NCBI RefSeq assembly: GCF_048403405.1 | Contig: NZ_CP183131.1 | Strand: one strand, 5' to 3' | DNA length: 64,000 bases | Source of the DNA: Escherichia coli | Lineage (GTDB): Bacteria; Pseudomonadota; Gammaproteobacteria; Enterobacterales; Enterobacteriaceae | In this document: positions 10,565 through 64,000 of the stretch, one piece after another | Position numbering within the stretch: the first letter of the stretch is position 1 | Layout: each line of letters opens with the position of its first letter | Translations under genes and position numbers: made by a program | The notes under the pieces: model-generated | Databases searched by the model: none | The model's input: only the letters and a program-made list of their open reading frames with translations | What the model was told of the DNA's origin: nothing

Positions 10565-10569
10565 GATGT

Positions 10570-24191: not shown

Positions 24192-24210
24192 ACTTTCACA
24201 TGTGAAAGTT
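24192..24210. promoter_or_regulatory. Palindromic operator-like site ACTTTCACATGTGAAAGTT (copy 2 of 8)
   Basis: Between 24218-24766 and 23877-24128. Confidence 0.5.
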
Positions 24211-24217
24211 TTCTGGT

Positions 24218-24766: not shown

Positions 24767-24928
24767 TCAGGACACCTTTTAGTCACATGACTATATCGAG
24801 GCTTATTCTACCCCCTATTTTAGTCACATGACTACTTACTGACATTTCGGCCCCCATCGCCGCCGATTTTTCTTGATTATAGGTTTGAATCTATATAGGA
24901 TTGCACCTATATTAAGTAAGGAGAAATC

Positions 24929-25279
24929 ATGTGGGTCATCGAGACAACCGACACCTTTGATGAGTGGTTCGATGCTCTGGATGATACCGATAGAGCAAAC
25001 GTGCTGGCTTCGATGATGGTGCTGCGAGATAGAGGCCCCATGCTGTCGAGGCCATACGCGGATACTGTTAACGGTTCATCCTACAGCAACATGAAAGAGC
25101 TTCGGGTCCAAAGCAAAGGAGATCCTATCAGAGCGTTCTTTGCGTTCGATCCAAAGCGTAAGGGGATTCTTCTCTGCGCCGGTAACAAGACCGGGGACGA
25201 GAAAAGGTTTTATGAAGTAATGATCCCAATTGCAGACCGTGAGTTTGCGGCGCACTTGGATAAATTGAAGAAGGAGTGA
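24929..25279 (+). CDS. higB: Type II toxin, RelE/HigB-like
   Basis: 116 aa; followed 4 bp later by an XRE-HTH antitoxin gene (toxin-first order typical of HigBA). Confidence 0.65.
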   Translation: MWVIETTDTFDEWFDALDDTDRANVLASMMVLRDRGPMLSRPYADTVNGSSYSNMKELRVQSKGDPIRAFFAFDPKRKGILLCAGNKTGDEKRFYEVMIPIADREFAAHLDKLKKE

Positions 25280-25283
25280 CGTT

Positions 25284-25586
25284 ATGGCAAGAACTCTTGA
25301 CCAAATGCTGGCAACAGAAAAGCCTGAGGTTGTTGCCAAAGCACAGAAAGCGGCCACTGAGATGTTACTGAACATCCACTTGGCAGAGCTTCGTGATCGC
25401 ATGAACCTTACCCAGGGGGAAATTGCTGCATCTCTGGGTGTGAGACAGCCGACAGTCTCCGAGATGGAAAAACCTGGACGAGATCTCAAGCTGTCGTCCA
25501 TTAAGCGGTACGTTGAGGCCTCCGGTGGCAAGCTACGCCTCGATGTTGAACTTCCGGACGGCACCCACTACGGCTTTGCCGTTTAA
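25284..25586 (+). CDS. higA: Type II antitoxin, XRE-family HTH (HigA-like)
   Basis: 100 aa; HTH LTQGEIAASLGVRQPTVSEMEK. Confidence 0.65.
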   Translation: MARTLDQMLATEKPEVVAKAQKAATEMLLNIHLAELRDRMNLTQGEIAASLGVRQPTVSEMEKPGRDLKLSSIKRYVEASGGKLRLDVELPDGTHYGFAV

Positions 25587-25612
25587 CTCGATACGCCCCG
25601 TTATGGGGCGTA

Positions 25613-25906
25613 TTACTTCTCTTGCTCTTCTTCCAGCCGTTTTCGGTATATCTCTCCTGCACGTTCCCTGCCATCGTCGGTCAGCCTAAAGGCCAGCTTT
25701 AGAGAAGCATTCCGGTACTTGTTCAACAGGCCGTTCTCCACCAGCGTGTGGCATGACGTTCGGAAGTTCGTTCCATGAATACCGCTCTGGCGAGCTGAAT
25801 TGATCATCTCCAGTATTTTTACACCTGGTACAGGCTCGGCTTTTCCACCGGCCTCAATTGCGTATAGAATGAACAAAACGTCTTTTTGAGTTGACGACAA
25901 TCTCAT
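25613..25906 (-). CDS. Hypothetical protein
   Basis: 97-aa ORF. Confidence 0.35.
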   Translation of the reverse strand: MRLSSTQKDVLFILYAIEAGGKAEPVPGVKILEMINSARQSGIHGTNFRTSCHTLVENGLLNKYRNASLKLAFRLTDDGRERAGEIYRKRLEEEQEK

Positions 25907-25993
25907 CCCTTCCCCTTATTCATGTCTGATATGAATAAGGCTCCCACGAAGGAGCCTTATGTAAACCTTATTCATGTGTCACATGATTAAGAT

Positions 25994-26266
25994 CTAGTTC
26001 ACGGAGTCTTTCAACCCCTTACCAGCTTTGAACCCAGGAATGTTGGCCGCCGCGATCTGGATGTTCTCTCCAGTCTGGGGATTCCGCCCGGTTCGCGCTG
26101 CGCGTTCCTTAACGTGGAAAGTACCAAACCCAGTGAGCGCTACTGTCCCACCCGCTTTAAGCTCCTCTGTCACTGAGTTGATCAGCGCATTTACCGCAGC
26201 TTCGGCCTTTGCTTTGCTAATGTCAGCGTCTTCGGCCACTTTCATAATCAGTTCACTTTTGTTCAT
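25994..26266 (-). CDS. HU-family nucleoid-associated DNA-binding protein
   Basis: 90 aa, [67 protein letters not shown]…. Confidence 0.85.
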
Positions 26267-26323
26267 CGTTATTCCTGTTTGTTTTCTTGGTTACTGTTTA
26301 CACCTGCATACTCTGGGGTGTGG

Positions 26324-26920
26324 TTAGTGCTTTCTTCGCCACTCCCAAGGGGGAGTTCTCTCCGATTCCGGTAATGCCCAGAGACCTCGCTTATCGGCTT
26401 TGGCTTCGGCCTCCAGCTTGAACAGCTCCGGTGTTTTGGCGTACTGCCGGTACACCCACGCACTCCCAGAACGGACCATTTCGGCATTGACCCATTTGCC
26501 ATCGACATAAAGGTTGGCGACCAGACGGCCATAACGGTCTTTGTCGATTTGCTCGACTTTAATCATTCGACCAAACACCAGATCGGACAACGCCTGTTTC
26601 GCCTTTGAGCCGTAGGGTTGTTTCTTCTCTGGGGTGTCGATTTCCGCCAGCCTTACCCGGTACTGGATTTTGCCGCTCCGGCAATCTTTCCCGGAGTCAC
26701 AGCTTTGTTCAGTCAGGACCTTGACCGTATCACCGTCAGACACCCCCACAACCTTCGCAGTAAAGGTTTCTGCCCATACCTGAGGGGCCACCACCAGCAT
26801 GGCTACCAGGAACGCTGAAACCCCCGTATTTTTCACAAAACCTAACCTCATAATCACTCCATCCAAATTACTTTTTTTTCCCAGCCGGTAGAGCCTTGGC
26901 CCAACAGAGCCTTGTTTCAT
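26324..26920 (-). CDS. Secreted thermonuclease (staphylococcal-nuclease-like)
   Basis: Signal peptide then SNase-like core (VVGVSDGDTVKV…RLAEIDTPE…YGR…); true start probably the internal Met (MRLGFVKN…). Confidence 0.7.
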   Translation of the reverse strand: MKQGSVGPRLYRLGKKSNLDGVIMRLGFVKNTGVSAFLVAMLVVAPQVWAETFTAKVVGVSDGDTVKVLTEQSCDSGKDCRSGKIQYRVRLAEIDTPEKKQPYGSKAKQALSDLVFGRMIKVEQIDKDRYGRLVANLYVDGKWVNAEMVRSGSAWVYRQYAKTPELFKLEAEAKADKRGLWALPESERTPPWEWRRKH

Positions 26921-27081
26921 CCACCTTGCTGTCTACGATTCGACAGGCATCCCAGTTAAGAGATGACCAGTGAGCAATGGCAGAGGCCAACCAGTACCAC
27001 GGTGCCGTAAACACCGGCTGGCCCCCTTCCTTCGTTTTAAATACCTGGTATCGCATGTTGATCCTCCTGTTTGGGTGAGGC

Positions 27082-27984
27082 TTAGGCCTCGTAATAGAAA
27101 TTTTTTGTGTCCGGATAGGGTTTAAAGCAATGAGCCGTGGCTCTCCCCAGGGAAAGCACTGAAGCCTCAGCTTCCGGCGCTTCCTCAGTGTCTTCACGAA
27201 ATTCCCCGCCAAGTTGCTTCACCCATTCGGCAGCGAGCTGCACACCTTCATCAAAGGGAACTTTGTTCTTTTGAAGCACATCCAGATAGGAAAGCAGCAA
27301 GCAGTGAGGCGTAATGACGGCGGTGTTCCAATCGGTTGCGAGCCGTGTTTCGTCCATATCTGCATACCAGGCATCAACCTGATGTTTCAATCCGATCTCG
27401 GCCATCATGCCGTGCTTACCGGCGACCTTTCTGCCTTCCTCTACCACATCAACCGGGGCGTCCCAGTAGAGGACTCCCCCGTCCGCTTCTTGGGTCGCAC
27501 AGGTTGCACCTTGCGGCCAATGCCTCCGTTCCATAACGAGCTCGCAGAGCGTTTGGTTGCCTACAGGAGCCTTGTAGTCCTCATCGAGATTCACCACGAT
27601 GGTTTCCGGCTCCTGTTCAACCGGTGGCAGGTATCTGGCGACCAGAGGCATTGTCAAAATCACAGCCCCATCCATGTGAAAGGATGTTGGAGCCTTCACT
27701 ATTCGGTCCATTACCCAGCACCAAGCATGAAGCAACCGATCCTCTACCTTGTCGTCAGCCTCAATCTCTTGAACGAACTGGTTGAAACGAACCTGACTAT
27801 CCAGAAACAGGCCTGTGCTCTGACACTTATCGCTGATCGTATGAATGAGCTCCGCCTGCTCCAGAAGCATTTCTCGGGTGACTTCCTCCACATCACCAAA
27901 TGCGTCAAACAACTTTGTCATGTAGTCACGAATTTGCATGTTCTTCCCCCTCGGCATCGAATTGCTTTGCAAGCTCAGGATCAC
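27082..27984 (-). CDS. Hypothetical protein
   Basis: 300-aa ORF. Confidence 0.45.
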   Translation of the reverse strand: MILSLQSNSMPRGKNMQIRDYMTKLFDAFGDVEEVTREMLLEQAELIHTISDKCQSTGLFLDSQVRFNQFVQEIEADDKVEDRLLHAWCWVMDRIVKAPTSFHMDGAVILTMPLVARYLPPVEQEPETIVVNLDEDYKAPVGNQTLCELVMERRHWPQGATCATQEADGGVLYWDAPVDVVEEGRKVAGKHGMMAEIGLKHQVDAWYADMDETRLATDWNTAVITPHCLLLSYLDVLQKNKVPFDEGVQLAAEWVKQLGGEFREDTEEAPEAEASVLSLGRATAHCFKPYPDTKNFYYEA

Positions 27985-31848: not shown

Positions 31849-32747
31849 GTTTCGATTATCAGTCCCCAGAACTCTTCATCAGCGCTATCAGCCCGGTCTT
31901 TGACTTTCTGGTAAACAAGGTTGGTGTTGAGCTGATGCTCACGACAGAACTGAGCAATGTTGCTGTAGGTCCTGTCCAGATAGGTGAAGGGTTTCCCTTT
32001 ACCTTTTTTCTTGGCGAGGATGAGCTTCCACTCATCATTGGAGAGTTTGTCTGCGGCCTTCCCGGTGTCCGCAATGCGCCTACGCACCGTTACCGGATCA
32101 AGTCCATGTGCTCTGGCTATGCTGGCAACGCAGTTGAACTTCCGACCGTCAATCATGACAGTAGGCAAATCACCAGCGGCAGCCTCCTTGAATCGGAAAC
32201 CTCTGTAACCTGGTTTGAAGATCCCAGGAGCAAGTTGCTCACGGAACTCGATTGCTTGTTCTGACCTGACAAACTTGCTGTCGATTTTGCCGAGCATGTA
32301 CTTAGCCCGAGCGATTACCTGGTAAAGCGTCTTCTCCAGGAGCATGGCGTCAGCAGCTCGACTCGGAAGACCTATGTCGTCTTCTTGCTCGATACCCAAC
32401 ATTTCTGCATGGCTGGAGCCTTCTGCATGTCGGAAACAGCCGTCGTACTCAAAAAGAAAGGAGGCCAAACCTCCTCTCAGCTTTGCTTTGAACCGGGTGT
32501 TGGCCGCGTTCTCTGGCGCTGGTGCCAGCTCGGACACTTCAAGCCCTAAATTTGCGGCCAACTTCCGCAGGTCTTCCTCTCCAATTCGGCATCCAGGCTG
32601 CATAACCTGCGCCAGAGCAGATTCATCAGCACATCCGCGTTCTTTCAGCTCAGCCAAGAGGTAGGGAACTCGTACTACCCCCATAAGCTCAAGCTCCCTG
32701 AATCGCGTGGACCACCAGCTCACAGAGTTTCCCGTACACAGGAGCAA
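31830..32747 (-). CDS. Hypothetical protein with possible C-terminal DNA-binding repeats
   Basis: 305-aa ORF; assignment weak. Confidence 0.4.
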   Translation of the reverse strand: MLLCTGNSVSWWSTRFRELELMGVVRVPYLLAELKERGCADESALAQVMQPGCRIGEEDLRKLAANLGLEVSELAPAPENAANTRFKAKLRGGLASFLFEYDGCFRHAEGSSHAEMLGIEQEDDIGLPSRAADAMLLEKTLYQVIARAKYMLGKIDSKFVRSEQAIEFREQLAPGIFKPGYRGFRFKEAAAGDLPTVMIDGRKFNCVASIARAHGLDPVTVRRRIADTGKAADKLSNDEWKLILAKKKGKGKPFTYLDRTYSNIAQFCREHQLNTNLVYQKVKDRADSADEEFWGLIIETCKRKN

Positions 32748-33072: not shown

Positions 33073-33466
33073 TAAGCTGGTGGAGGCTAAGCATCTGAAC
33101 CTTGTCAGTGCCGGTCACTTGCAGATCCACCGCGAACCACGTCCCACCTTTGGTCACGGCCAGAACTTGCACCGCCCAGGGCTTATCCAGTCGTTCGGGC
33201 GGAGTGATCATGTTCGACACTTTGGCGACCGTCGCGGTTGAACCTACCCAGTGCTTGTCGAACGCAATGACGTTCAACGCTTCAAACGCATCCTTCGCAG
33301 CTTTAAACCGGCTCCGGACAGCATCTTGTTGCTTCCAAGCCATGAACTGGAGAAGGGTCATTCCACCAGCCATAAGGGTGAGAAAACTCAAGCCATTGGC
33401 GGCAGCTACGACCGTCGCTACCAAGGACCCCAACATGACGAAGCGGTTATGTTTAAGCTGGGCCAC
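32993..33466 (-). CDS. Hypothetical membrane protein
   Basis: 157-aa ORF with N-terminal hydrophobic helices. Confidence 0.4.
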   Translation of the reverse strand: MAQLKHNRFVMLGSLVATVVAAANGLSFLTLMAGGMTLLQFMAWKQQDAVRSRFKAAKDAFEALNVIAFDKHWVGSTATVAKVSNMITPPERLDKPWAVQVLAVTKGGTWFAVDLQVTGTDKVQMLSLHQLSEKAAKTMLAFDLEVYEKFFGKPDVA

Positions 33467-51583: not shown

Positions 51584-53116
51584 CTATTTGGTCGTGTCCT
51601 CTTCAACTTCTGTCGCTTCTGCGGCCATCTTCATCTGCTTCTCGACCATGCGTTTTTGGGTGATGTAGCGGATAACCATCTCGACAGCGCTGTTCAACGC
51701 AAGGATTCGCATCGCTCTGGTGGATGCAACGTAGAGCAGGTTTATTTCATCGTCACGGGCCATTGGGTCGAGCTCTGGGTCCAGGACATCCGGAAAGTCG
51801 TCATAGAGCTGAACAAAGTCCCACTCCAACCCTTTGCACCGATGAGCTGTTGAGACCGTAATGTCAGCCCCAAACTCTTCTTTGACTGTATTGCGTCGTA
51901 GAGTGGTGAGTCGTTCAGGGATTTCATCGTAGCTGTTGATGATCTTGACAGCCCTCATCATCTCAGGGTCTTTGGTCGCCTTCGCTACTTCTTGATACTC
52001 GAAGTAGTCTTCATACTCATCAAGCAGTTTCTTATTCTTTACCCGGTCTGGCTCTGCCATCGAAAACCAGTACAAATCCTGGAGCTCATTGATCTGGTAA
52101 GCGTCGATTCCACCGACCCAGAATACCTGCGCTCCGGATTCGGTCGCAGAGAGCGCCGTCTCTATAACCCCCATGACGGTTCGGTGAAGTATTGCGCGGT
52201 GGCCCACGTCACCTGGTAAAAACATGAGTACCTGATCTGCTGGTCCCCGGCCAACAACAGGTCGTGTTTCACCTTTGAGTTCAAGAAGGGCGTTTGCCAC
52301 CAGCGAAACGTTGGGGCCAAAGCGGAAGCTATGAGTGAGATAGAGTTGGTCGGCGTTCATGAGCTCTTTGCTATCAAGGGCGTTGTTTGCGCCTCTGAAC
52401 CTATAGATCTGCTGGTGGCGATCTCCAACCAGGATTACCTTGCAGTTCTGCTGTAGGACGATGCTACTTGTTACGGGGTTAGCGTCTTGTGCTTCATCAA
52501 AAAGAATGGTGGTGTACCGGCGAGACAGATTCGGCATCCCGAGCTGATACTGTTTGAGGTAGCAATCGTGTACGGTCGGGAACGGATCTTGAACGTTTGT
52601 CATCCGTTTCCATATGAGCTCAGCACCTTCGACCACCTGGATTTGGTATCTCTCCTGTTTGGACGTAAGCACTTTACCCGTATCGGCGCGAGCAAAATGC
52701 GTATAAAGAATCCGCATGTCTGCACTACACATAAAGGCGTTGAGCGTATCGAGAATATCTTTGGCAAACGTCCAGTTCTTGGTATTCACCGCTTGGGCAA
52801 TATCGGTGAGCCTTAGGTTGCCGGAGAGTTTGTGCTGGTAGCCCCTTCCTATAGTGGCGTAGGCAAGCTGGTGGGACGTTTTGCAGTCTACGTTTGCAGG
52901 AAACTTTTCTCTTGCCTCGTCGCGGATAGCCCTGTTGTATGCCAAGTAGAGGATACGTGAATCGAGGTTGTTGTGGGCGTACTTCACCAGTGTCGTGGTT
53001 TTACCCGTTCCAGCGTAGGCCTTAACGACAAGGCGAGGCCCTTTGTACTGAGTGATCAGTGATTGTTCTGGTGTGTCAGGAGGAAGTTGTTTCATGAGGC
53101 CCCCTACGACAAACAC
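51584..53116 (-). CDS. Superfamily 1 (UvrD/Rep-like) DNA helicase
   Basis: 510 aa; Walker A AGTGKTT, motif II FDEAQD, C-terminal motifs (VSTAHRCKGLEWDFV, LLYVASTRA). Confidence 0.8.
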   Translation of the reverse strand: MFVVGGLMKQLPPDTPEQSLITQYKGPRLVVKAYAGTGKTTTLVKYAHNNLDSRILYLAYNRAIRDEAREKFPANVDCKTSHQLAYATIGRGYQHKLSGNLRLTDIAQAVNTKNWTFAKDILDTLNAFMCSADMRILYTHFARADTGKVLTSKQERYQIQVVEGAELIWKRMTNVQDPFPTVHDCYLKQYQLGMPNLSRRYTTILFDEAQDANPVTSSIVLQQNCKVILVGDRHQQIYRFRGANNALDSKELMNADQLYLTHSFRFGPNVSLVANALLELKGETRPVVGRGPADQVLMFLPGDVGHRAILHRTVMGVIETALSATESGAQVFWVGGIDAYQINELQDLYWFSMAEPDRVKNKKLLDEYEDYFEYQEVAKATKDPEMMRAVKIINSYDEIPERLTTLRRNTVKEEFGADITVSTAHRCKGLEWDFVQLYDDFPDVLDPELDPMARDDEINLLYVASTRAMRILALNSAVEMVIRYITQKRMVEKQMKMAAEATEVEEDTTK

Positions 53117-53382
53117 ATCTGGAGAGTGATGCGCTTCTTTTGTGTCGAGAGGAACGTACTGATCCGCTTTTCTTCTCGGGGGAGGGATACTTCACAATCC
53201 AGATCTGTCCACCAGTCTGGGGCTTTACCTTGAGCCACCTCCGTAACCCAACTATGGAGACGGTGTAACCAGCGATAGTCGCCAATAGATGAGGTGGCTA
53301 GTGTCATAGCCTCCTCAATCTTGGTTTGAAGAGCCGCAGCTCTGTGTCGCCACTCTTCTGAATATTTAGCCTTTCGCGCCAT
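53104..53382 (-). CDS. Hypothetical small protein
   Basis: 92-aa ORF coupled between the KfrA-like gene and the helicase. Confidence 0.4.
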   Translation of the reverse strand: MARKAKYSEEWRHRAAALQTKIEEAMTLATSSIGDYRWLHRLHSWVTEVAQGKAPDWWTDLDCEVSLPREEKRISTFLSTQKKRITLQMCLS

Positions 53383-54422
53383 CAGTTTTCCTCTTTCTTT
53401 TTCCCTCCCTTACCAGCTTTAGCGAGCTCTTGCTCCAACCCAGAAATTTTGGTCAGTGCATCATTGAGTCTTTGTTCGAGGCTCTTGGCCTGCTGGTCTT
53501 TTTCCTGCAACTGACCAGCCATCATGCCTTTGTCTTGAACAAGAGCGCGAGCTTCTGCTTCGGCGCTGGATAATTTGGCGTCCAGCTTTTCTACCTCTCC
53601 AGATAGGCGCTGGCACTCTCGTTCAGCGGATTCGCCATGAGCTTTGGCTGTGGCAAGGGAGTCCTGTGATTGGGCCAGTTTGGCCTGTACATTTTCGAGC
53701 TGCTCTTTCAACGATGTTTTTTGTTCCTGAGCGGCCCGGAGCTTTTCTGTCTGCTCTATACTCTTGCCTTTTTGCTCCTCCAACTCACCCTCTGTAGTTG
53801 CCAATTTTTGGCTCAAAGAGCGATTTTCGCTTTTAGCTTGCTCCAGGTGATCCTGTGCTCGGGTCAGATCTGCGGCTTTCGCCTCCAGCTTGCCCTCCAA
53901 CTCAACGATCCGCTTTTCCAGCTTATCAATGTCAGCCAGTGAGCGTTCTAGCTCCGCAGACTTGAGGGATAGCGAGTTTTCTGCCTTACCAAGGGCCGCA
54001 TCGAGCTCTGATTTTTTGTTGGTGAGAGCTTCAAGTTGTTCCTCCAGTAGCTCAGCCCGTTCGGTGGCATCATTTGCCATGTCCACGGCTTGCTGCATAT
54101 CTTCCTGGTACTCAATTTCTTTCTGTCGTAGCAGTTCACGCTCGCGCTCAAGCTGTTCATCGGCGCTTGCTTTGGCTACCGTATAGATCTTCTGTAGGAA
54201 GAGCTCAGCATCGCTCATAACCGATTCTGGAAGGACTACCTCTACCAGCTCTTCATCGAGGGAGTGTTCCTCTGACCACTGTTTGAGATACGTTGAAATG
54301 GTGGTAAAGCTCCCCTTGCCAATGATGTCTCTGATAGCGATGACCGTTGGGCGTTTACCGGCGTCCTTGAGCTTTTGGGCCGCAGCCGCTACATCGTCAA
54401 ACTCAACCAATTTTCTTGCCAT
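53382..54422 (-). CDS. KfrA-like protein (N-terminal DNA-binding domain plus long coiled coil)
   Basis: 346 aa; N-terminus MARKLVEFDDVAAAAQKLKDAGKRPTVIAIRDIIGKGS…; remainder is heptad-rich E/K/A/L/Q. Confidence 0.65.
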   Translation of the reverse strand: MARKLVEFDDVAAAAQKLKDAGKRPTVIAIRDIIGKGSFTTISTYLKQWSEEHSLDEELVEVVLPESVMSDAELFLQKIYTVAKASADEQLERERELLRQKEIEYQEDMQQAVDMANDATERAELLEEQLEALTNKKSELDAALGKAENSLSLKSAELERSLADIDKLEKRIVELEGKLEAKAADLTRAQDHLEQAKSENRSLSQKLATTEGELEEQKGKSIEQTEKLRAAQEQKTSLKEQLENVQAKLAQSQDSLATAKAHGESAERECQRLSGEVEKLDAKLSSAEAEARALVQDKGMMAGQLQEKDQQAKSLEQRLNDALTKISGLEQELAKAGKGGKKKEEN

Positions 54423-54450
54423 GAGAACGTTCCTTTTAATTTGTAATGTT

Positions 54451-54495
54451 TACGATAATTACGATAATTACGATAATTACGATAATTACGATAAT
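54451..54495. repeat. Tandem 9-bp repeat (tacgataat) x5 plus degenerate copies
   Basis: Five perfect head-to-tail copies 29 bp upstream of the KfrA-like start. Confidence 0.9.
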
Positions 54496-54608
54496 ACGGT
54501 AATTATCATAATTATATATCATGCTGCTGTCGATTGGAATTGTTTGTGTGGGACAAAGCCCTTCCGGCTGCGGAAAAGCCTTGTTACGCGGTCACGCTGA
54601 TTCATCCA

Positions 54609-54646
54609 GGGGGAGCCCGCAGAATTCGGAAAAAATCGTACGCTAA
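54609..54646. repeat. 38-bp terminal inverted repeat of a Tn1721-type (Tn21 subgroup) transposon
   Basis: ggggagcccgcagaattcggaaaaaatcgtacgctaag; the tnpA stop lies inside it. Confidence 0.8.
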
Positions 54647-56159
54647 GGTTTTCCGGGCATCCGTAAGGGCCGAAACTTCCCGTCTTCCAGTCTGCGGCTC
54701 TGCCGCCAGACGTAATCGCCGGTTAGGTTGATGTGCTCCCAGCCCAGCGGCGACAGGAATTGCAGCAGCTCGCCGTCCACCGGCTTGCCGGCCTCGACCA
54801 ACCCCTGGGTGGCGCGTTCCAGGTACACCGTGTTCCACAGCACGATAGCCGCCGTCACCAGGTTGAGGCCGCTGGCCCGGTAGCGCTGCTGCTCGAAGCT
54901 CCGATCCCTGATTTCCCCAAGGCGGTTGAAGAACACCGCCCTGGCCAGCGAGTTGCGCGCCTCACCTTTGTTCAGGCCGGCATGCACGCGGCGGCGCAGT
55001 TCAACACTTTGCAGCCAGTCCAGGATGAACAGCGTGCGCTCGATCCGGCCCAGCTCGCGCAGGGCCACGGCCAGTCCGTTCTGGCGCGGGTAGCTGCCGA
55101 GCTTGCGCAGCATCAGCGAGGCGGTGACGGTGCCCTGCTTGATCGAGCTGGCCAGGCGCAGGATGTCGTCCCAGTGGGCACGCACGTGCTTGATGTTCAG
55201 GGTGCCGCCGATCAGCGGGCGCAACGTCGGGTAGGCTTGCACGCCCTGCGGCACGTACAGCTTGGTTTCGCCGAGGTCGCGGATGCGCGGCGCGAAGCGG
55301 AAGCCTAGCAGGTGCATCAGGGCAAAGACGTGATCGGTGAAGCCGGCCGTGTCGGTGTAGTGCTCCTCGATCCGCAGGTCGGACTCGTGGTACAGCAGGC
55401 CGTCGAGCACATAGGTGGAATCGCGGACGCCGACATTCACCACGCGGGTGCTGAACGGCGCGTACTGGTCGGAGATATGGGTATAGAACAGCCGTCCCGG
55501 CTCGCTACCGTACTTCGGGTTGACGTGCCCGGTGCTCTCGCCCCGGCCACCCGCGCGGAAGCGCTGGCCATCGGAGGATGAGGTCGTGCCGTCGCCCCAG
55601 TGGGCGGCAAAGGCGTGGCGATACTGGTGGTTGACCAGCTCGGCCAAGGCCGCCGAATAGGTTTCGTCGCGGATGTGCCAGGCTTGCAGCCAGGACAGCT
55701 TGGCGTAGGTCAGGCCGGGGCTCGACTCGGCCATCTTGGTCAGCCCGAGGTTGATCGCATCACCGAGGATTGCGGACAGCAGCAACGTCCTGTCTTTGGC
55801 CTCGGCCCCGTCCTTCAAGTGGGTGAAGTGGCGGCTGAAGCCCGTCCAGTCGTCCACGTCCATCAGCAGTTCGGTGATCTTGATGCGCGGCAGTAACTGG
55901 CTGGTTTGGTCGATCAGCGCCTGCGCCCGATCCGGCACCGCCGCATCCAGCGGGGTGATTTTCAGCCCTGACTCGGTGAGGATGGCATCGGGCAGCTCGT
56001 TGTCCTTGGCCAGGCGGGTGACGGTGGCCAACTGCTCGTCCAGCAGCTGCAAACGCTCTTCCAGGTACTGGTCGCTGTTCGGGTTGATCGCCAGGGGCAG
56101 GGCCTGCTCGCGCTTGAGTGCGGCGAACTTCTCGGCCGGCAGCAGGTAGTCGTCGAAGT
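54643..56159 (-). pseudogene. tnpA: Tn3-family transposase tnpA, 3' portion (Tn1721-like), 5' end removed by IS26
   Basis: 505 codons of TnpA C-terminus ending in the IR; ORF reads into the IS26 IR at 56160. Confidence 0.85.
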
Positions 56160-56979
56160 GGCACTGTTGCAAATAGTCGGTGGTGATAAACTTATCATCC
56201 CCTTTTGCTGATGGAGCTGCACATGAACCCATTCAAAGGCCGGCATTTTCAGCGTGACATCATTCTGTGGGCCGTACGCTGGTACTGCAAATACGGCATC
56301 AGTTACCGTGAGCTGCAGGAGATGCTTGCTGAACGCGGAGTGAATGTCGATCACTCCACGATTTACCGCTGGGTTCAGCGTTATGCGCCTGAAATGGAAA
56401 AACGGCTGCGCTGGTACTGGCGTAACCCTTCCGATCTTTGCCCGTGGCACATGGATGAAACCTACGTGAAGGTCAATGGCCGCTGGGCGTATCTGTACCG
56501 GGCCGTCGACAGCCGGGGCCGCACTGTCGATTTTTATCTCTCCTCCCGTCGTAACAGCAAAGCTGCATACCGGTTTCTGGGTAAAATCCTCAACAACGTG
56601 AAGAAGTGGCAGATCCCGCGATTCATCAACACGGATAAAGCGCCCGCCTATGGTCGCGCGCTTGCTCTGCTCAAACGCGAAGGCCGGTGCCCGTCTGACG
56701 TTGAACACCGACAGATTAAGTACCGGAACAACGTGATTGAATGCGATCATAGCAAACTGAAACGGATAATCGGCGCCACGCTGGGATTTAAATCCATGAA
56801 GACGGCTTACGCCACCATCAAAGGTATTGAGGTGATGCGTGCACTACGCAAAGGCCAGGCCTCAGCATTTTATTATGGTGATCCCCTGGGCGAAATGCGC
56901 CTGGTAAGCAGAGTTTTTGAAATGTAAGGCCTTTGAATAAGACAAAAGGCTGCCTCATCGCTAACTTTGCAACAGTGCC
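56160..56979 (+). mobile_element. IS26: IS26 variant copy, 820 bp (tnp26 56223-56927)
   Basis: Terminal IRs intact; carries Tnp26 Gly177Ser (…ECDHSKLK…) and a synonymous ctg>ctt change shared with the copy at 59588-60407. Confidence 0.96.
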
Positions 56980-57025
56980 TTTAAGCGTGCATAATAAGCC
57001 CTACACAAATTGGGAGTTAGACATC

Positions 57026-57625
57026 ATGAGCAACGCAAAAACAAAGTTAGGCATCACAAAGTACAGCATCGTGACCAACAGCAACGATTCCGTCACACTG
57101 CGCCTCATGACTGAGCATGACCTTGCGATGCTCTATGAGTGGCTAAATCGATCTCATATCGTCGAGTGGTGGGGCGGAGAAGAAGCACGCCCGACACTTG
57201 CTGACGTACAGGAACAGTACTTGCCAAGCGTTTTAGCGCAAGAGTCCGTCACTCCATACATTGCAATGCTGAATGGAGAGCCGATTGGGTATGCCCAGTC
57301 GTACGTTGCTCTTGGAAGCGGGGACGGACGGTGGGAAGAAGAAACCGATCCAGGAGTACGCGGAATAGACCAGTTACTGGCGAATGCATCACAACTGGGC
57401 AAAGGCTTGGGAACCAAGCTGGTTCGAGCTCTGGTTGAGTTGCTGTTCAATGATCCCGAGGTCACCAAGATCCAAACGGACCCGTCGCCGAGCAACTTGC
57501 GAGCGATCCGATGCTACGAGAAAGCGGGGTTTGAGAGGCAAGGTACCGTAACCACCCCATATGGTCCAGCCGTGTACATGGTTCAAACACGCCAGGCATT
57601 CGAGCGAACACGCAGTGATGCCTAA
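57026..57625 (+). CDS. aac(6')-Ib-cr: Aminoglycoside/fluoroquinolone acetyltransferase AAC(6')-Ib-cr
   Basis: 199 aa; both signature substitutions present: Trp102Arg ([10 protein letters not shown]) and Asp179Tyr (TTPYGPAVY); ORF-track N-terminal extension into IS26 rejected. Confidence 0.9.
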
Positions 57626-57691
57626 CCCTTCCATCGAGGGGGACGTCCAAGGGCTGGCGCCCTTGGCCGCCCCTCATGTCAAACGTTGGGC
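57620..57691 (+). other. attC of the aac(6')-Ib cassette
   Basis: Inverse core gcctaac at 57620, core gttgggc at 57685; imperfect inverted repeat. Confidence 0.55.
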
Positions 57692-57755
57692 GAACCCGGA
57701 GCCTCATTAATTGTTAGCCGTTAAAATTAAGCCCTTTACCAAACCAATACTTATT

Positions 57756-58586
57756 ATGAAAAACACAATACATATCAACTTCGCTATTTTTTTAATAATT
57801 GCAAATATTATCTACAGCAGCGCCAGTGCATCAACAGATATCTCTACTGTTGCATCTCCATTATTTGAAGGAACTGAAGGTTGTTTTTTACTTTACGATG
57901 CATCCACAAACGCTGAAATTGCTCAATTCAATAAAGCAAAGTGTGCAACGCAAATGGCACCAGATTCAACTTTCAAGATCGCATTATCACTTATGGCATT
58001 TGATGCGGAAATAATAGATCAGAAAACCATATTCAAATGGGATAAAACCCCCAAAGGAATGGAGATCTGGAACAGCAATCATACACCAAAGACGTGGATG
58101 CAATTTTCTGTTGTTTGGGTTTCGCAAGAAATAACCCAAAAAATTGGATTAAATAAAATCAAGAATTATCTCAAAGATTTTGATTATGGAAATCAAGACT
58201 TCTCTGGAGATAAAGAAAGAAACAACGGATTAACAGAAGCATGGCTCGAAAGTAGCTTAAAAATTTCACCAGAAGAACAAATTCAATTCCTGCGTAAAAT
58301 TATTAATCACAATCTCCCAGTTAAAAACTCAGCCATAGAAAACACCATAGAGAACATGTATCTACAAGATCTGGATAATAGTACAAAACTGTATGGGAAA
58401 ACTGGTGCAGGATTCACAGCAAATAGAACCTTACAAAACGGATGGTTTGAAGGGTTTATTATAAGCAAATCAGGACATAAATATGTTTTTGTGTCCGCAC
58501 TTACAGGAAACTTGGGGTCGAATTTAACATCAAGCATAAAAGCCAAGAAAAATGCGATCACCATTCTAAACACACTAAATTTATAA
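57756..58586 (+). CDS. blaOXA-1: Class D beta-lactamase OXA-1
   Basis: 276 aa from MKNTIHINFAIFLIIANIIYSSASASTDISTVASPLFEGTEGCFLLYD…; STFK active site. Confidence 0.93.
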   Translation: MKNTIHINFAIFLIIANIIYSSASASTDISTVASPLFEGTEGCFLLYDASTNAEIAQFNKAKCATQMAPDSTFKIALSLMAFDAEIIDQKTIFKWDKTPKGMEIWNSNHTPKTWMQFSVVWVSQEITQKIGLNKIKNYLKDFDYGNQDFSGDKERNNGLTEAWLESSLKISPEEQIQFLRKIINHNLPVKNSAIENTIENMYLQDLDNSTKLYGKTGAGFTANRTLQNGWFEGFIISKSGHKYVFVSALTGNLGSNLTSSIKAKKNAITILNTLNL

Positions 58587-58602
58587 AAAATCTAATGGCA
58601 AA

Positions 58603-58695
58603 ATCGCCCAACCCTTCAATCAAGTCGGGACGGCCAAAAGCAAGCTTTTGGCTCCCCTCGCTGGCGCTCGGCGCCCCTTATTTCAAACGTTAGAC
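58603..58695 (+). other. attC of the blaOXA-1 cassette (approximate)
   Basis: Inverted-repeat region ending in core gttagac. Confidence 0.5.
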
Positions 58696-58723
58696 GGCAA
58701 AGTCACAGACCGCGGGATCTCTT

Positions 58724-59356
58724 ATGACCAACTACTTTGATAGCCCCTTCAAAGGCAAGCTGCTTTCTGAGCAAGTGAAGAACCCCAATATCAAAGTTGG
58801 GCGGTACAGCTATTACTCTGGCTACTATCATGGGCACTCATTCGATGACTGCGCACGGTATCTGTTTCCGGACCGTGATGACGTTGATAAGTTGATCATC
58901 GGTAGTTTCTGCTCTATCGGGAGTGGGGCTTCCTTTATCATGGCTGGCAATCAGGGGCATCGGTACGACTGGGCATCATCTTTCCCGTTCTTTTATATGC
59001 AGGAAGAACCTGCATTCTCAAGCGCACTCGATGCCTTCCAAAAAGCAGGTAATACTGTCATTGGCAATGACGTTTGGATCGGCTCTGAGGCAATGGTCAT
59101 GCCCGGAATCAAGATCGGGCACGGTGCGGTGATAGGCAGCCGCTCGTTGGTGACAAAAGATGTGGAGCCTTACGCTATCGTTGGCGGCAATCCCGCTAAG
59201 AAGATTAAGAAACGCTTCACCGATGAGGAAATTTCATTGCTTCTGGAGATGGAGTGGTGGAATTGGTCACTGGAGAAGATCAAAGCGGCAATGCCCATGC
59301 TGTGCTCGTCTAATATTGTTGGCCTGCACAAGTATTGGCTCGAGTTTGCCGTCTAA
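58724..59356 (+). CDS. catB3: Chloramphenicol acetyltransferase CatB3 (full length)
   Basis: 210 aa, hexapeptide-repeat acetyltransferase, [33 protein letters not shown]…. Confidence 0.88.
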
Positions 59357-59410
59357 CAATTCAATCAAGCCGATGCCGCTTCGCGGCACGGCTTATTTCA
59401 GGCGTTATGC
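59351..59410 (+). other. attC of the catB3 cassette (approximate)
   Basis: gtctaac … gttatgc inverted-repeat structure. Confidence 0.5.
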
Positions 59411-59440
59411 AGCCAAATCCCAACAATTAAGGGTCTTAAA

Positions 59441-59587
59441 ATGGTAAAAGATTGGATTCCCATCTCTCATGATAATTACAAGCAGGTGCAAGGACCGTTC
59501 TATCATGGAACCAAAGCCAATTTGGCGATTGGTGACTTGCTAACCACAGGGTTCATCTCTCATTTCGAGGACGGTCGTATTCTTAAG
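59441..59587 (+). pseudogene. arr-3: arr-3 (rifampin ADP-ribosyltransferase), 3'-truncated by IS26 after about 49 codons
   Basis: MVKDWIPISHDNYKQVQGPFYHGTKANLAIGDLLTTGFISHFEDGRIL then IS26 IR. Confidence 0.85.
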
Positions 59588-60407
59588 GGCACTGTTGCAA
59601 AGTTAGCGATGAGGCAGCCTTTTGTCTTATTCAAAGGCCTTACATTTCAAAAACTCTGCTTACCAGGCGCATTTCGCCCAGGGGATCACCATAATAAAAT
59701 GCTGAGGCCTGGCCTTTGCGTAGTGCACGCATCACCTCAATACCTTTGATGGTGGCGTAAGCCGTCTTCATGGATTTAAATCCCAGCGTGGCGCCGATTA
59801 TCCGTTTCAGTTTGCCATGATCGCATTCAATCACGTTGTTCCGGTACTTAATCTGTCGGTGTTCAACGTCAGACGGGCACCGGCCTTCGCGTTTGAGCAG
59901 AGCAAGCGCGCGACCATAGGCGGGCGCTTTATCCGTGTTGATGAATCGCGGGATCTGCCACTTCTTCACGTTGTTGAGGATTTTACCCAGAAACCGGTAT
60001 GCAGCTTTGCTGTTACGACGGGAGGAGAGATAAAAATCGACAGTGCGGCCCCGGCTGTCGACGGCCCGGTACAGATACGCCCAGCGGCCATTGACCTTCA
60101 CGTAGGTTTCATCCATGTGCCACGGGCAAAGATCGGAAGGGTTACGCCAGTACCAGCGCAGCCGTTTTTCCATTTCAGGCGCATAACGCTGAACCCAGCG
60201 GTAAATCGTGGAGTGATCGACATTCACTCCGCGTTCAGCAAGCATCTCCTGCAGCTCACGGTAACTGATGCCGTATTTGCAGTACCAGCGTACGGCCCAC
60301 AGAATGATGTCACGCTGAAAATGCCGGCCTTTGAATGGGTTCATGTGCAGCTCCATCAGCAAAAGGGGATGATAAGTTTATCACCACCGACTATTTGCAA
60401 CAGTGCC
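59588..60407 (-). mobile_element. IS26: IS26, 820 bp (tnp26 59640-60344, minus strand)
   Basis: Terminal IRs intact; shares the synonymous SNP with the copy at 56160. Confidence 0.97.
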
Positions 60408-60729
60408 GTAATTATTTAGGATATAGCTCTGTGATTTAGTCTTTTTAGGGCGTTTATTTATGTCTTTATGCTGTAATGTCGGTGCTGATTTGGTCTTCAA
60501 TAAGGCGATTTTTAGCCCGCTTTTTCCGGGGGGATGAAATGTTATTGGATTGCTAAATGATTTCAAAAAAGGGGTAACATAGAGCGGGGATTAGTGTGGC
60601 GAGGCGCAGGTTTCCGATGGCAGGCTAAACGCAAAAAATGCGCTTTTTAGCCGGTGATGAGGTGAGGCCGGGAGGGGATGCGTCGCCGATCACAGTTTAC
60701 AACAGGGTTTGATAACGGGAGGAAAAGTC

Positions 60730-61146
60730 ATGCTGCAGGGATTGAATCATCTGACGCTGGCGGTCAGCGATCTGGCGTCAAGCCTGGCATTTTATCAGCA
60801 GTTACCTGGAATGCGCCTGCACGCCAGCTGGGATAGCGGAGCCTATCTCTCCTGTGGGGCGCTGTGGCTGTGCTTGTCGCTGGATGAGCAGCGGCGTAAA
60901 ACGCCCCCTCAGGAAAGCGACTATACCCACTACGCCTTCAGCGTGGCGGAAGAAGAGTTTGCCGGGGTGGTGGCTCTGCTGGCGCAGGCGGGGGCTGAGG
61001 TATGGAAAGATAACCGCAGTGAAGGGGCGTCTTACTATTTTCTCGACCCTGACGGCCATAAGCTGGAGCTGCATGTGGGGAATCTGGCGCAGCGGCTGGC
61101 CGCCTGTCGCGAACGCCCCTACAAGGGGATGGTCTTTTTTGATTGA
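60730..61146 (+). CDS. fosA3: Fosfomycin-inactivating glutathione transferase FosA3
   Basis: 138 aa from [43 protein letters not shown]…; classic IS26-fosA3-orf1-orf2-orf3delta-IS26 context. Confidence 0.85.
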
Positions 61147-61150
61147 CGGG

Positions 61151-61669
61151 TTAGTTCAGCTTACTGCCGGATTTCAACGTGCAGATCCACAGCGGTGAAT
61201 TGATAGAGCTGAGCAAGATAGCCTTTTCGTTGAGCTTCTGAGCGTTGAGAAACAGCCCGTCGTGGCTGTCGGACATCTCGCGCATAAAGTAGTCGAAAAT
61301 CACGTTCGGCGATTCATCAATCGAGGAGGCGCTCGATTCCCACTGATTGATGCGGTAATGACGCTCGGTGGCCGAGATGCGTTTGCTGCTGTAGGTAAAC
61401 TTCACGTAGCGTTGCAGGTAGAGCCAGCCGGCGGCGGAGTCGGTGTAACCTTCGACCACCATCGAGCCCTTACCCTGCGCGCCAAAATTGAAGTGAATAT
61501 TGCCGTTAACGTTCTCTTTGTCCATGTTCTCAAAGCGCATGATGCCCTTAGTGGAACAGCTCATGACACCCGCGTTGTCGGCAGGCAGCAGCCGCCAGGC
61601 GCTAAACGCGGCGGCGGCAATAAATACCAGAACGCAGAGGGCAAAGAACGGACGCGGCGCGAGTCTCAT
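61151..61669 (-). CDS. Hypothetical exported protein (orf1 of the fosA3 module)
   Basis: 172-aa ORF with N-terminal hydrophobic segment. Confidence 0.5.
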   Translation of the reverse strand: MRLAPRPFFALCVLVFIAAAAFSAWRLLPADNAGVMSCSTKGIMRFENMDKENVNGNIHFNFGAQGKGSMVVEGYTDSAAGWLYLQRYVKFTYSSKRISATERHYRINQWESSASSIDESPNVIFDYFMREMSDSHDGLFLNAQKLNEKAILLSSINSPLWICTLKSGSKLN

Positions 61670-62457
61670 TACGGCTTCCAGGAGTAGTAAAAGTAGTTAT
61701 CGCAATAGCTGAACGGGTTATCTTCATGCATGGCGCAGTGGGCAAGGAACACGCGCCCCAGCCCGTTGGTTTCGAGCCGATCGCCGTAGAAGAAAAGAAA
61801 ACGTTCACCGGGTTTACAGGCAATATTCAGCCGCTGGCGTACCTCATCGAAGTTTTTGCCGTAGGACTCTTCACTGACCGAACGTCGCATTTCATCGCTG
61901 GCCAGCAGTTCGCACTGGCTATGGCTGAGGCGGGTCAGCGCGATAGGCTGGGATTCACTGATGCCGACCAGACTGAAGGCAACCAGAAGCAGGGCAATGG
62001 TGAGCAAGCAGGCTCCGGCCATGTACCAGCACATCCCGCGAGCATGTGCGGAGCGCGGTGCGTCTGGCGTTGTCGTAACGGGCGGCGGTTCGGCAGGCGT
62101 CTGTTGTGGTGAAACCGGCGGCGCGTCGTCCAGCGCTTCGATAATGACCTCGGGATTAAGCTGCAAATAGCCGCGCGAGACGGTGACGATGATGTTATCG
62201 ACGCCGTAATGGCGAAAGGTCTTCCGCAGCATGCTGAGATACTGATTCAGATTGCTGTTGGATGAGGTTAATCCATTGTCATCCCAGACTTTTTTCAGAA
62301 CATCTTCCCGGCTGACAATCTCGGTATGGCGCAGAAAATAGTTAAACAGGGCGCTGGCGGTGAGGGATAGCTGGCTGTCCGGTTCATCGCTTTGCGGCAG
62401 CGTCAGGGTTCCGTCGGTGGCGTCGTAGATAAAACGGGCATTGATGTTGTAGCGCAT
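61669..62457 (-). CDS. CadC/ToxR-like membrane-bound transcriptional regulator (orf2 of the fosA3 module)
   Basis: N-terminal winged-helix region, Pro-rich linker, single TM segment. Confidence 0.55.
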   Translation of the reverse strand: MRYNINARFIYDATDGTLTLPQSDEPDSQLSLTASALFNYFLRHTEIVSREDVLKKVWDDNGLTSSNSNLNQYLSMLRKTFRHYGVDNIIVTVSRGYLQLNPEVIIEALDDAPPVSPQQTPAEPPPVTTTPDAPRSAHARGMCWYMAGACLLTIALLLVAFSLVGISESQPIALTRLSHSQCELLASDEMRRSVSEESYGKNFDEVRQRLNIACKPGERFLFFYGDRLETNGLGRVFLAHCAMHEDNPFSYCDNYFYYSWKP

Positions 62458-62476
62458 CGCGGCCTCAGTCTGTGCT

Positions 62477-62904
62477 TCACGCGGGAAGCGTCATTTTATT
62501 CAGGGAGTCAACCAGCGCGCGACGGTGGTCGGCGCTCATGGTGATCCCTTCCGTCAACTCCGAAAGCCAGATGCCGTCAGCGGCGTAGCGCACCAGCGTG
62601 CCGGTTGGGCTGTTATCCAGCTCATCGCCCTGCGCCAGTTTCTCCAGCATCCAGTCGCGCCAGCATTTGCGCAGCACCGGTTCATCGGGCATTGCCAGCG
62701 ACAAAACCATAAGCTGGCGGCTTTCATGGGTGTCCGTGAGATCCGCCAGATAGTTCAGATAGGCGCGGGTAAACCGGCCATAGCTCACGCCATCCTGTTG
62801 CATCAGCGCGGTAATCGCTTCTTCCATGATTGCCAGCAGACGCGCGAACAGGGCGAATATTAGCGCCTGCTTGTTCGGGAAATGGTGGATAAGGCCGCCT
62901 TTAC
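62477..62904 (-). pseudogene. TetR-family regulator, 5'-truncated by IS26 (orf3delta of the fosA3 module)
   Basis: C-terminal ligand-binding region only; ORF start lies inside the IS26 IR. Confidence 0.6.
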
Positions 62905-63724
62905 GGCACTGTTGCAAAGTTAGCGATGAGGCAGCCTTTTGTCTTATTCAAAGGCCTTACATTTCAAAAACTCTGCTTACCAGGCGCATTTCGCCCAGGG
63001 GATCACCATAATAAAATGCTGAGGCCTGGCCTTTGCGTAGTGCACGCATCACCTCAATACCTTTGATGGTGGCGTAAGCCGTCTTCATGGATTTAAATCC
63101 CAGCGTGGCGCCGATTATCCGTTTCAGTTTGCCATGATCGCATTCAATCACGTTGTTCCGGTACTTAATCTGTCGGTGTTCAACGTCAGACGGGCACCGG
63201 CCTTCGCGTTTGAGCAGAGCAAGCGCGCGACCATAGGCGGGCGCTTTATCCGTGTTGATGAATCGCGGGATCTGCCACTTCTTCACGTTGTTGAGGATTT
63301 TACCCAGAAACCGGTATGCAGCTTTGCTGTTACGACGGGAGGAGAGATAAAAATCGACAGTGCGGCCCCGGCTGTCGACGGCCCGGTACAGATACGCCCA
63401 GCGGCCATTGACCTTCACGTAGGTTTCATCCATGTGCCACGGGCAAAGATCGGAAGGGTTACGCCAGTACCAGCGCAGCCGTTTTTCCATTTCAGGCGCA
63501 TAACGCTGAACCCAGCGGTAAATCGTGGAGTGATCGACATTCACTCCGCGTTCAGCCAGCATCTCCTGCAGCTCACGGTAACTGATGCCGTATTTGCAGT
63601 ACCAGCGTACGGCCCACAGAATGATGTCACGCTGAAAATGCCGGCCTTTGAATGGGTTCATGTGCAGCTCCATCAGCAAAAGGGGATGATAAGTTTATCA
63701 CCACCGACTATTTGCAACAGTGCC
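62905..63724 (-). mobile_element. IS26: IS26, 820 bp (tnp26 62957-63661, minus strand)
   Basis: Terminal IRs intact; standard Tnp26 sequence. Confidence 0.97.
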
Positions 63725-64000
63725 AAATGCTCCTTAAGGAACTCGATGCGTACGCCGCGCTGGGTGAGGCCCTGCACCAGGCGGCGCAGGTCGTCGAGGT
63801 TGCGCGCCAGACGATCCATGCTGTGCACCACGACCGTGTCGCCTTCGCGCACGAAGGCGAGCAGCCGTTCCAGTTCGGGCCGCCGTGTGTCCTTGCCCGA
63901 CGCCTTGTCGGTGAACACTTTATCCACCTGGATCTGTTCGAGCTGCCGTTCTGGGTTCTGGTCGAAGCTGCTGACGCGGACGTAACCGATGCGCTGACCG
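63725..64000 (-). pseudogene. tnpR: Tn21-subgroup resolvase tnpR, 5' portion (continues beyond window), 3'-truncated by IS26
   Basis: Minus-strand translation …GQRIGYVRVSSFDQNPERQLEQIQVDKVFTDKASGKDTRRPELERLL…VHSMDRLARNLDDLRRLVQGLTQRGV… then IS26 IR. Confidence 0.8.

Follow-up and report, generated by a model that had tools for sequence, protein, structure and literature searches.

The window analysed here (64,000 nucleotides of the Escherichia coli contig NZ_CP183131.1) ends in an island whose host backbone is an IncC plasmid. In this backbone lies TCCAG (54605-54609), the left copy of a 5-bp target-site duplication, followed by the 38-bp terminal inverted repeat of Tn1721/Tn1722 at the tnpA end (IRR, 54610-54647, minus strand; GGGGAGCCCGCAGAATTCGGAAAAAATCGTACGCTAAG), which was identified by direct reading of the sequence. 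The earlier note had let the element begin at 54609; the repeat is present but starts one bp later, and the G at 54609 belongs to TCCAG. The 3' fragment of a Tn1721-type tnpA (54643-56159, minus strand; nt 1451-2967 of the gene) is truncated by the first IS26 copy (56160-56979, plus strand), whose IRL end abuts it and which was recognized by its 14-bp terminal repeats and 820-bp length. The segment that follows (57071-59356, plus strand) carries aac(6')-Ib-cr5 (57071-57625), blaOXA-1 (57756-58586) and catB3 (58724-59356). The second IS26 (59588-60407, minus strand), opposite in orientation to the first, separates it from the fosA3 segment (60730-62904, plus strand), which consists of fosA3 itself (60730-61146, plus strand), two minus-strand genes (61151-61669 and 61669-62457) and a third, truncated gene extending up to IS26; this is the typical IS26-fosA3-hp1-hp2-truncated hp3-IS26 unit (PMC7364219). 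The third IS26 (62905-63724, minus strand) abuts with its IRL end the 5' fragment of tnpR (63725-64000, minus strand), a Tn5051-like, mer-linked resolvase gene that is read from nt 281 at 63725 back to nt 6 at 64000 and runs past the window end. The resistance genes were located by transferring the PGAP and AMRFinder annotation of the sibling record NZ_CP129693.1 by coordinate offset.

All three IS26 copies are complete (820 bp each, with 14-bp terminal repeats) and 0-2 nt apart in sequence. Their flanks are GTCGAAGT/TTTAAGCG, TTCTTAAG/GTAATTAT and GCCTTTAC/AAATGCTC, and no 8-bp duplications, direct or inverted, were found around the three copies, which by sequence points to deletion, inversion or recombination more than to simple insertion. 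The reciprocal junction expected of a simple IS26 insertion (tnpA up to nt 1458 joined to the IRR end of IS26) gave only two-piece, non-contiguous matches.

The two transposon gene fragments share the minus strand, tnpR preceding tnpA, and this arrangement, which the earlier note had pointed out as that of a single transposon, was borne out. The interval that should join them, estimated there at roughly 1.7 kb, measures 1733 bp on intact relatives (280 nt for the remainder of tnpR, 3 nt of intergenic DNA and 1450 nt for the 5' part of tnpA). In its place stand the three IS26 copies and, between them, the aac(6')-Ib-cr/blaOXA-1/catB3 and fosA3 segments, again as proposed. Taken together with the single pair of inverted repeats and the TCCAG on either side (see below), these features are what one ordinary Tn1721/Tn21-type transposon would leave behind if IS26 had deleted in place the 1.7 kb that joins tnpR to tnpA. 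The identities of the two fragments to Tn1721, the IS26 orientations and the sibling plasmids make this history very improbable.

The tnpA fragment retains 1517 nt of the 2967-nt gene, stop codon included, and holds a complete Pfam DDE_Tnp_Tn3 domain (E = 6e-156). It is 100% identical (1550/1550 bp) to the intact Tn1721-type tnpA of four relatives (L004, L005, L012, L013) and, over 1445 bp, to pFBAOT6. The tnpR fragment, the first 281 nt of the gene, gives a Pfam hit to the Resolvase N-terminal domain (E = 2e-24), but its identity to the canonical Tn1721 tnpR (relatives L007, L012, L013) is only 84.1%, with 43 mismatches in 270 nt. At the protein level 83 of 93 residues are identical to TNR7_ECOLX, the UniRef entry through which the canonical Tn1721 resolvase was recognized. 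The same fragment is 100% identical to the tnpR of relatives L002, L006, L008 and L011, and in L011 the identity extends over the whole tnpR-res stretch (396/396 nt), which there adjoins urf2-merE-merD-merA. This mer-linked tnpR type has been assigned to Tn5051 (PMC7364219), and the label Tn5051 for the tnpR arm follows the statement of that paper. Judged by these identities, the fragments come from two transposons of the Tn3 family, Tn1721/Tn1722 (tnpA) and a Tn5051-like mercury transposon (tnpR), and on this point the common origin suggested earlier, for which comparison with Tn1721 had been proposed as the check, failed.

The switch from one parent to the other could be mapped within res. 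Up to GCTATACCCTAACTTG there is full identity to Tn1721, and from ATACCCTAACTTGGC onward to the mer-linked element; the left half of res matches Tn1721 at 100%, and the right half is divergent. The crossover coincides exactly with the start of the 779-bp Tn5051 segment described before (PMC7364219). By its 38-bp repeats, 5-bp duplication, tnpA match and res-tnpR-tnpA order the element is a member of the Tn1721/Tn1722 group (Tn3 family, Tn21 subgroup); by tnpR and res it is not.

The junctions with IS26 differ greatly in their distribution. That between IS26 and tnpA nt 1451 occurs in at least 1792 PLSDB records, whereas that between IS26 and tnpR nt 281 had an exact match in only one, NZ_CP129693.1. 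Two independent IS26-tnpR junctions lie only 2 bp apart. In pKC394 the tnpA junction is the same, also in orientation, and on the far side of that IS26 lies nt 100 of a Tn5051-type tnpA. In the hybrid tnpA of pHFQ1 the switch to Tn1721-type sequence falls exactly at the 8 bp beside the very common IS26 junction. The copy beside tnpR is oriented opposite to that beside tnpA, which, like the missing 8-bp repeats, speaks against a deletion in place.

The res site, mcp, the second inverted repeat and the second TCCAG lie beyond position 64000 and were taken from NZ_CP129693.1, outside the window. This record is 99.9% identical to the window between 52000 and 64000, with two indels there, of 9 bp and 100 bp; elsewhere it is rearranged, and it covers only 74% of window positions 1-16000. 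In it the tnpR arm continues through res and mcp, the latter interrupted by an ISEcp1-blaCTX-M-14 unit, as far as the other Tn1721 repeat. The search for this second end, proposed in the earlier note, was thus successful: the 38-bp repeat (IRL) is at 33334-33371, immediately followed by TCCAG (33372-33376). The uninterrupted site with a single TCCAG was found as a 100% match in 880 other records, many of them IncC plasmids, and the junction between backbone and IRR is common to 58 records. Since TCCAG is present at both outer ends, both fragments lie inside one transposon-bounded unit. Hence the view that they are the two ends of one hollowed transposon was right as to the single unit, with both inverted repeats and the duplication, and wrong as to the single source.

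As IS26 is able to join unrelated DNA, and the fragments differ in sequence origin, one could imagine two unrelated remnants of separate insertions that were brought together by IS26 and never shared a unit. The matching TCCAG repeats argue against it, provided that the source plasmid resembles NZ_CP129693.1 beyond position 64000, as does the tnpR arm, which is contiguous with the res and mcp of Tn1722. The two mcp halves match across the ISEcp1 unit, sharing the 5-bp TGTTA (24894-24898 and 32137-32141 of NZ_CP129693.1; the IRL of ISEcp1 ends at 32136), which equals the 5-bp duplication TAACA reported for the ISEcp1 unit in mcp (PMC7364219). Moreover, outside the Tn5051-like patch both arms are identical to an intact sibling element, and we regard independent remnants as highly unlikely.

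Intact siblings occur at the same site. The IncC plasmids pKPHS3 and pT212 have the backbone-IRR junction of the window, a full-length tnpA of 2967 nt and a canonical Tn1721 tnpR; the IRR sequence is identical in the window, both these plasmids and pKC394. Their element, of the Tn6558/Tn6559 type, has the same outer arms without mismatches and the same mcp interruption as the window lineage, but it has no IS26 array, whereas the window lineage has lost or replaced its middle part. Tn6558 and Tn6559 are Tn1722 with a blaCTX-M-14 unit in mcp (PMC6735626). Between NZ_CP129693.1 and pT212 the res-mcp-iroN-IS903B arm differs only within the Tn5051-like patch (none of the differences falls in 24213-27112), and between NZ_CP129693.1 and pKPHS3 the ISEcp1-mcp arm shows no differences in 2234 bp. 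In view of the unequal identities to Tn1721, the intact siblings at this site with their canonical tnpR and the widespread IS26-tnpA junction, the island is not one Tn1721 that IS26 hollowed out in place. Two other candidates were dropped. The tnpA fragment is not a partial duplicate from the tet end of a full Tn1721, because the sibling plasmids have a complete tnpA here and no tet region. An IncC plasmid from Taipei (L014), considered as an intermediate, has an IS26 deletion that reaches mcp; its tnpR is gone, and it carries no information on the tnpR type.

These comparisons suggest that the island is probably a Tn1722-derived unit that was inserted once into an IncC plasmid and whose centre was later replaced by a Tn5051-like piece and an IS26 array. 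According to this history, a Tn1722 with the ISEcp1-blaCTX-M-14-IS903 unit in mcp, like Tn6558/Tn6559, would have entered the IncC backbone once, generating the TCCAG duplication. Its central transposition module, from the right half of res through tnpA nt 1450, would later have been replaced by a 396-bp Tn5051-like piece (the right half of res and tnpR nt 1-281), joined to Tn1722 at the res crossover site, and by the array of three IS26 copies with fosA3 and aac(6')-Ib-cr/blaOXA-1/catB3. We offer a two-step route as the most economical one. In the first step the resident element may have undergone homologous recombination with a circulating mosaic sharing long identical arms with it, of the structure mcp'-res-tnpR(Tn5051)-tnpA nt 1-100, IS26-fosA3-IS26, final 1517 nt of tnpA-IRR, a structure known from pKC394, pAMSC4 and types A/B of PMC7364219. 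In the second, IS26-mediated inversion or exchange would have reversed the fosA3 unit and brought in the blaOXA-1 segment, with the loss of another 383 bp (tnpR nt 282-561, the spacer of 3 bp and tnpA nt 1-100). Compared with pAMSC4, the third IS26 copy and the fosA3 unit stand in inverted orientation. Because the crossover in res recombination always falls at one fixed point, the hybrid res junction could have arisen in place instead of by import. We infer the direction of change; in principle, the intact siblings could be repaired versions of the mosaic.

A different possibility is that both fragments descend from a single Tn1722/Tn5051 hybrid, formed by crossovers at res and between tnpA nt 100 and 1450, whose middle was deleted by IS26 and which came to the IncC site through either recombination or transposition in trans. 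There are hybrid tnpA genes whose 5' half is non-Tn1721 and whose 3' half is 100% Tn1721; the switch lies near nt 1260 in L005 and within nt 1458-1469 in L016. In pKC394 the pieces of tnpA flank one IS26 in the same order and orientation, and Tn1722 units of this kind carry different 5-bp duplications in several plasmids (PMC7364219). The ancestor itself, however, did not appear: no PLSDB record had the window-type tnpR followed by an uninterrupted hybrid tnpA matching both pieces, and the only intact tnpA behind a window-type tnpR, in L008, is Tn5051-like throughout and only 81.6% identical to the window fragment. A composite query detected no intact transposon in PLSDB matching both fragments; intact copies matched only one piece well, and the only perfect matches, pKC394 and NC_019087, have IS26 between the pieces. 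A hybrid ancestor is thus possible, if unlikely. A broader idea, which we consider improbable, is that the 3' half of Tn1721 tnpA from nt 1451 is a recurrently grafted cassette, with IS26 at nt 1451-1458 and res crossovers swapping modules among Tn1722, Tn5051-like and other Tn21-subgroup elements; it would explain the pHFQ1 switch point and the two neighbouring IS26-tnpR junctions.

Whatever its route, the unit is now without a functional transposase or resolvase; the truncation to 1517 of 2967 nt makes tnpA non-functional. Because both 38-bp ends are intact it is movable in principle, but from established Tn3-family biology it could move only with a Tn1721-family transposase supplied in trans. 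Such movement has been inferred for related units with different 5-bp duplications (PMC7364219). For annotation, the island is one Tn1722-bounded unit in an IncC plasmid, and its resistance genes are fosA3, blaOXA-1, aac(6')-Ib-cr, catB3 and, beyond the window, blaCTX-M-14. The tnpR and tnpA remnants resemble a matching pair yet differ in history: order and orientation alone cannot prove the common ancestry of fragments around IS26, which requires identity to reference elements and comparison with sibling plasmids.

The mosaic is of an already described kind. With canonical Tn1721/Tn1722 (X61367, compared via the pFBAOT6 copy) it shares the 38-bp repeats and, at 100% identity, the 3' part of tnpA, mcp and the left half of res; for tnpR and the right half of res the identity is only about 84%, and the tet region is lacking. 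Other IncC plasmids, for example pC723R_NDM1 (LC521847), carry the complete array, first to third IS26, at 100% identity, but there its neighbours are a mer operon and blaTEM-1 and not, as in the window, Tn1722 arms. Incomplete Tn1722 elements with IS26-fosA3, 779 bp of Tn5051 and a tnpA truncated to 1517 bp have been classified into types A-E (PMC7364219). These types, pAMSC4 (CP031109) and pKC394 (NC_014231) share with the element studied here the mcp split by an ISEcp1-blaCTX-M-9-group-IS903-iroN unit, the res crossover into a Tn5051-type tnpR, the 1517-nt tnpA beside the IRL of IS26 and the fosA3 unit. The window differs from them in its Tn5051 piece, of whose 779 bp only 396 are left, with tnpR cut at nt 281, in the inverted fosA3 unit and the added IS26-bounded aac(6')-Ib-cr/blaOXA-1/catB3 segment, and in its IncC backbone host with the duplication TCCAG.

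The transposon end was read from the sequence as a 38-bp terminal repeat at 54610-54647 of the window (GGGGAGCCCGCAGAATTCGGAAAAAATCGTACGCTAAG), directly preceded by TCCAG (54605-54609). It is followed on the minus strand by the 3'-terminal 1517 nt of a transposase gene of the Tn3 family (tnpA, 54643-56159), a fragment that comprises the complete Pfam DDE_Tnp_Tn3 domain and is cut off abruptly at the IRL end of IS26 copy 1 (56160-56979). Copies 2 and 3 (59588-60407 and 62905-63724, 820 bp each) are inverted relative to copy 1, and the 5' fragment of a serine resolvase gene (tnpR, Pfam Resolvase) occupies the minus strand from 63725 (its nt 281) to the window end (its nt 6). No 8-bp flank repeats, direct or inverted, were found at the three copies. 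PGAP/AMRFinder annotation was transferred from the sibling IncC plasmid NZ_CP129693.1 (K. pneumoniae, Taiwan), which is 99.9% identical over window 52000-64000: aac(6')-Ib-cr5 (57071-57625), blaOXA-1 (57756-58586), catB3 (58724-59356) and fosA3 (60730-61146), the last followed by two minus-strand genes. Between catB3 and the second IS26 (59357-59587; 19349-19679 in the sibling) the sibling record is longer by 100 bp. The coordinates, strands and order assigned to the two fragments by the earlier note were right, except that the start of the repeat was shifted by 1 bp, and its estimate of about 1.7 kb missing between them agrees with the 280 + 3 + 1450 = 1733 bp measured on intact relatives.

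Everything past position 64000 was read from the sibling, which has small indels relative to the window and is rearranged in the other resistance island. Beyond 64000, the tnpR start is followed by res and nt 1-537 of the Tn1722 mcp gene, divergent from tnpR, then by a rearranged iroN remnant-IS903B-IS110-family element-blaCTX-M-14-IS903B-truncated ISEcp1 segment, the remaining mcp, the second 38-bp repeat (33334-33371, GGGGGAACCGCAGAATTCGGAAAAAATCGTACGCTAAG in other-strand reading) and TCCAG again. At the ISEcp1 IRL the mcp halves share 5 bp (TGTTA), the same duplication that PMC7364219 reports as TAACA for the widespread insertion splitting mcp. A construct of both backbone flanks with a single TCCAG found 100% matches in many IncC plasmids, and at least 80% of it was covered in 880 records. 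The paired TCCAG, the mcp overlap and the single-TCCAG sites thus show that the whole island is a single Tn1722-bounded insertion. Just outside the transposon end, a 9-bp tandem repeat of the IncC backbone (TTACGATAA x 7.3, 54450-54514) has one unit more in the window than in the sibling.

The two gene fragments differ clearly in their identity to Tn1721. Together with its repeat, the tnpA fragment is identical (1550/1550) to the intact Tn1721-type tnpA of pT212, pKPHS3 and two comparison loci (L004, L005), and to pFBAOT6 over the 1445 bp present there. In contrast, tnpR of pFBAOT6, pT212 and pKPHS3, whose product is the exact UniRef entry 'Transposons Tn1721 resolvase, TNR7_ECOLX', shares only 84.1% identity with the tnpR fragment (43 mismatches in 270 nt; 83/93 residues alike in the protein). 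The fragment is 100% identical to the Tn5051-like tnpR copies of pKC394, p13QT31-2, pNY11286-DIM and pCCRI24236-2. In pCCRI24236-2 this tnpR'-res adjoins urf2-merE-merD-merA, and in pNY11286-DIM the gene behind this tnpR is another full-length tnpA, only 81.6% identical to the window's tnpA fragment. Therefore, of the proposal that the fragments are two ends of one transposon, the bounded unit, its geometry and the gap stand, whereas descent from one ancestral Tn1721 does not.

In a five-way alignment, the window-type sequence equals Tn1721 from mcp up to ...GCTATACCCTAACTTG and the mer-linked element from ATACCCTAACTTGGC... on through tnpR, the switch falling within a 13-bp stretch inside res common to both parents. 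As judged from the alignment, this is the pattern expected of resolvase-mediated exchange between related transposons. From established Tn21-subgroup biology, the crossover point would be res subsite I. It is possible that the hybrid res was formed in place, since site-specific recombination crosses over at one and the same point each time.

The 101-bp junction between backbone and IRR, the tnpA-end repeat, occurs in 58 PLSDB records. Two of these, the IncC plasmids pKPHS3 and pT212, have the Tn1721 tnpA at its full 2967 nt, together with canonical tnpR, res and interrupted mcp. Along the res-mcp-iroN-IS903B arm the sibling differs from pT212 only inside the Tn5051-like patch (no difference in 24213-27112), and along the ISEcp1-mcp arm from pKPHS3 nowhere in 2234 bp. 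These identities argue that the same insertion event underlies the window lineage, pKPHS3 and pT212, and that the centre of the element was probably replaced in the window lineage; with Tn1721 tnpR-tnpA intact at the same site, hollowing in place by IS26, as proposed earlier, gives way to an exchange. In the likely course, a Tn6558/Tn6559-like element (Tn1722 with a blaCTX-M-14 unit in mcp) would have been resident in the IncC backbone, and homologous recombination would have exchanged its middle with that of a circulating Tn1722/Tn5051/IS26-fosA3 mosaic sharing long identical arms. IS26-mediated inversion or exchange would then have flipped the fosA3 unit, deleted another 383 bp and added the segment with blaOXA-1. 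Alternatively, a single pre-formed hybrid transposon could have been hollowed by IS26 afterwards: tnpA hybrids whose 3' half is of the Tn1721 type are known in L005 and pHFQ1, but the search gave no uninterrupted one that matches both fragments.

In the full-length hybrid tnpA of pHFQ1 (NZ_AP023428.1; nt 1448-1469 examined), Tn5051-like sequence gives way to 100% Tn1721-type sequence at some point from nt 1458 to nt 1469. Immediately adjacent are the 8 bp (nt 1451-1458, ACTTCGAC) with which the very common junction of IS26 with truncated tnpA starts; this closeness may be due to chance or a vestige of a lost IS26. The Taipei IncC plasmid NZ_CP023724.1 (17600-21120) carries a further derivative of the island, with the same site and the same IS26-tnpA junction, a deletion spanning tnpR and res into mcp (to sibling position 24422), and blaCTX-M-14 lost between IS903B copies.

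Other plasmids share the junction of IS26 with tnpA nt 1451. In pKC394 (IncN) the identical junction belongs to a single IS26 whose other end meets Tn5051-type tnpA nt 100, and a 90-bp probe had coverage of 80% or more in at least 1792 records; the reciprocal junction was looked for and not found. The junction of IS26 with tnpR nt 281 was contiguous only in NZ_CP129693.1. In pCCRI24236-2 (4001-4082) and nine similar IncN records, an IS26 in the same orientation abuts the Tn5051-like tnpR at nt 283, only 2 bp away, with tnpR'-res still joined to the mer operon; the two junctions look like independent IS26 events 2 bp apart.

In the other resistance island (window 1-16000), the annotation of matches indicates ISCR1, intI1 and IncN-like virB genes. 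Only 74% of it is covered by NZ_CP129693.1, in 4 pieces; this record was therefore ruled out as the window's own, the source of the window being a sibling plasmid with rearrangements. The IS26 end at 1-85 is followed by 8 bp (86-93, AGTGATAC) that are the reverse complement of those (13670-13677, GTATCACT) following the IS26 at 12850-13669, the signature of an IS26-mediated inversion.

The mosaic is of a known kind, with a near-identical arrangement already in a public record and close relatives described (PMC7364219, PMC6735626, PMC5241659). In PMC7364219, a 779-bp Tn5051 segment is bordered by the fosA3 module on one side and a 687-bp Tn1722 fragment (truncated mcp + 150 bp) on the other, with a 1517-bp truncated tnpA, exactly as arranged here. 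The start of that segment coincides with the crossover mapped here. The window lineage keeps 396 bp of it (sibling 23817-24212), 276 bp of them inside the window. Compared with pAMSC4, the window has IS26 copy 3 and the fosA3 unit in inverted orientation; the full three-IS26 array is also present in pC723R_NDM1, with other flanks.
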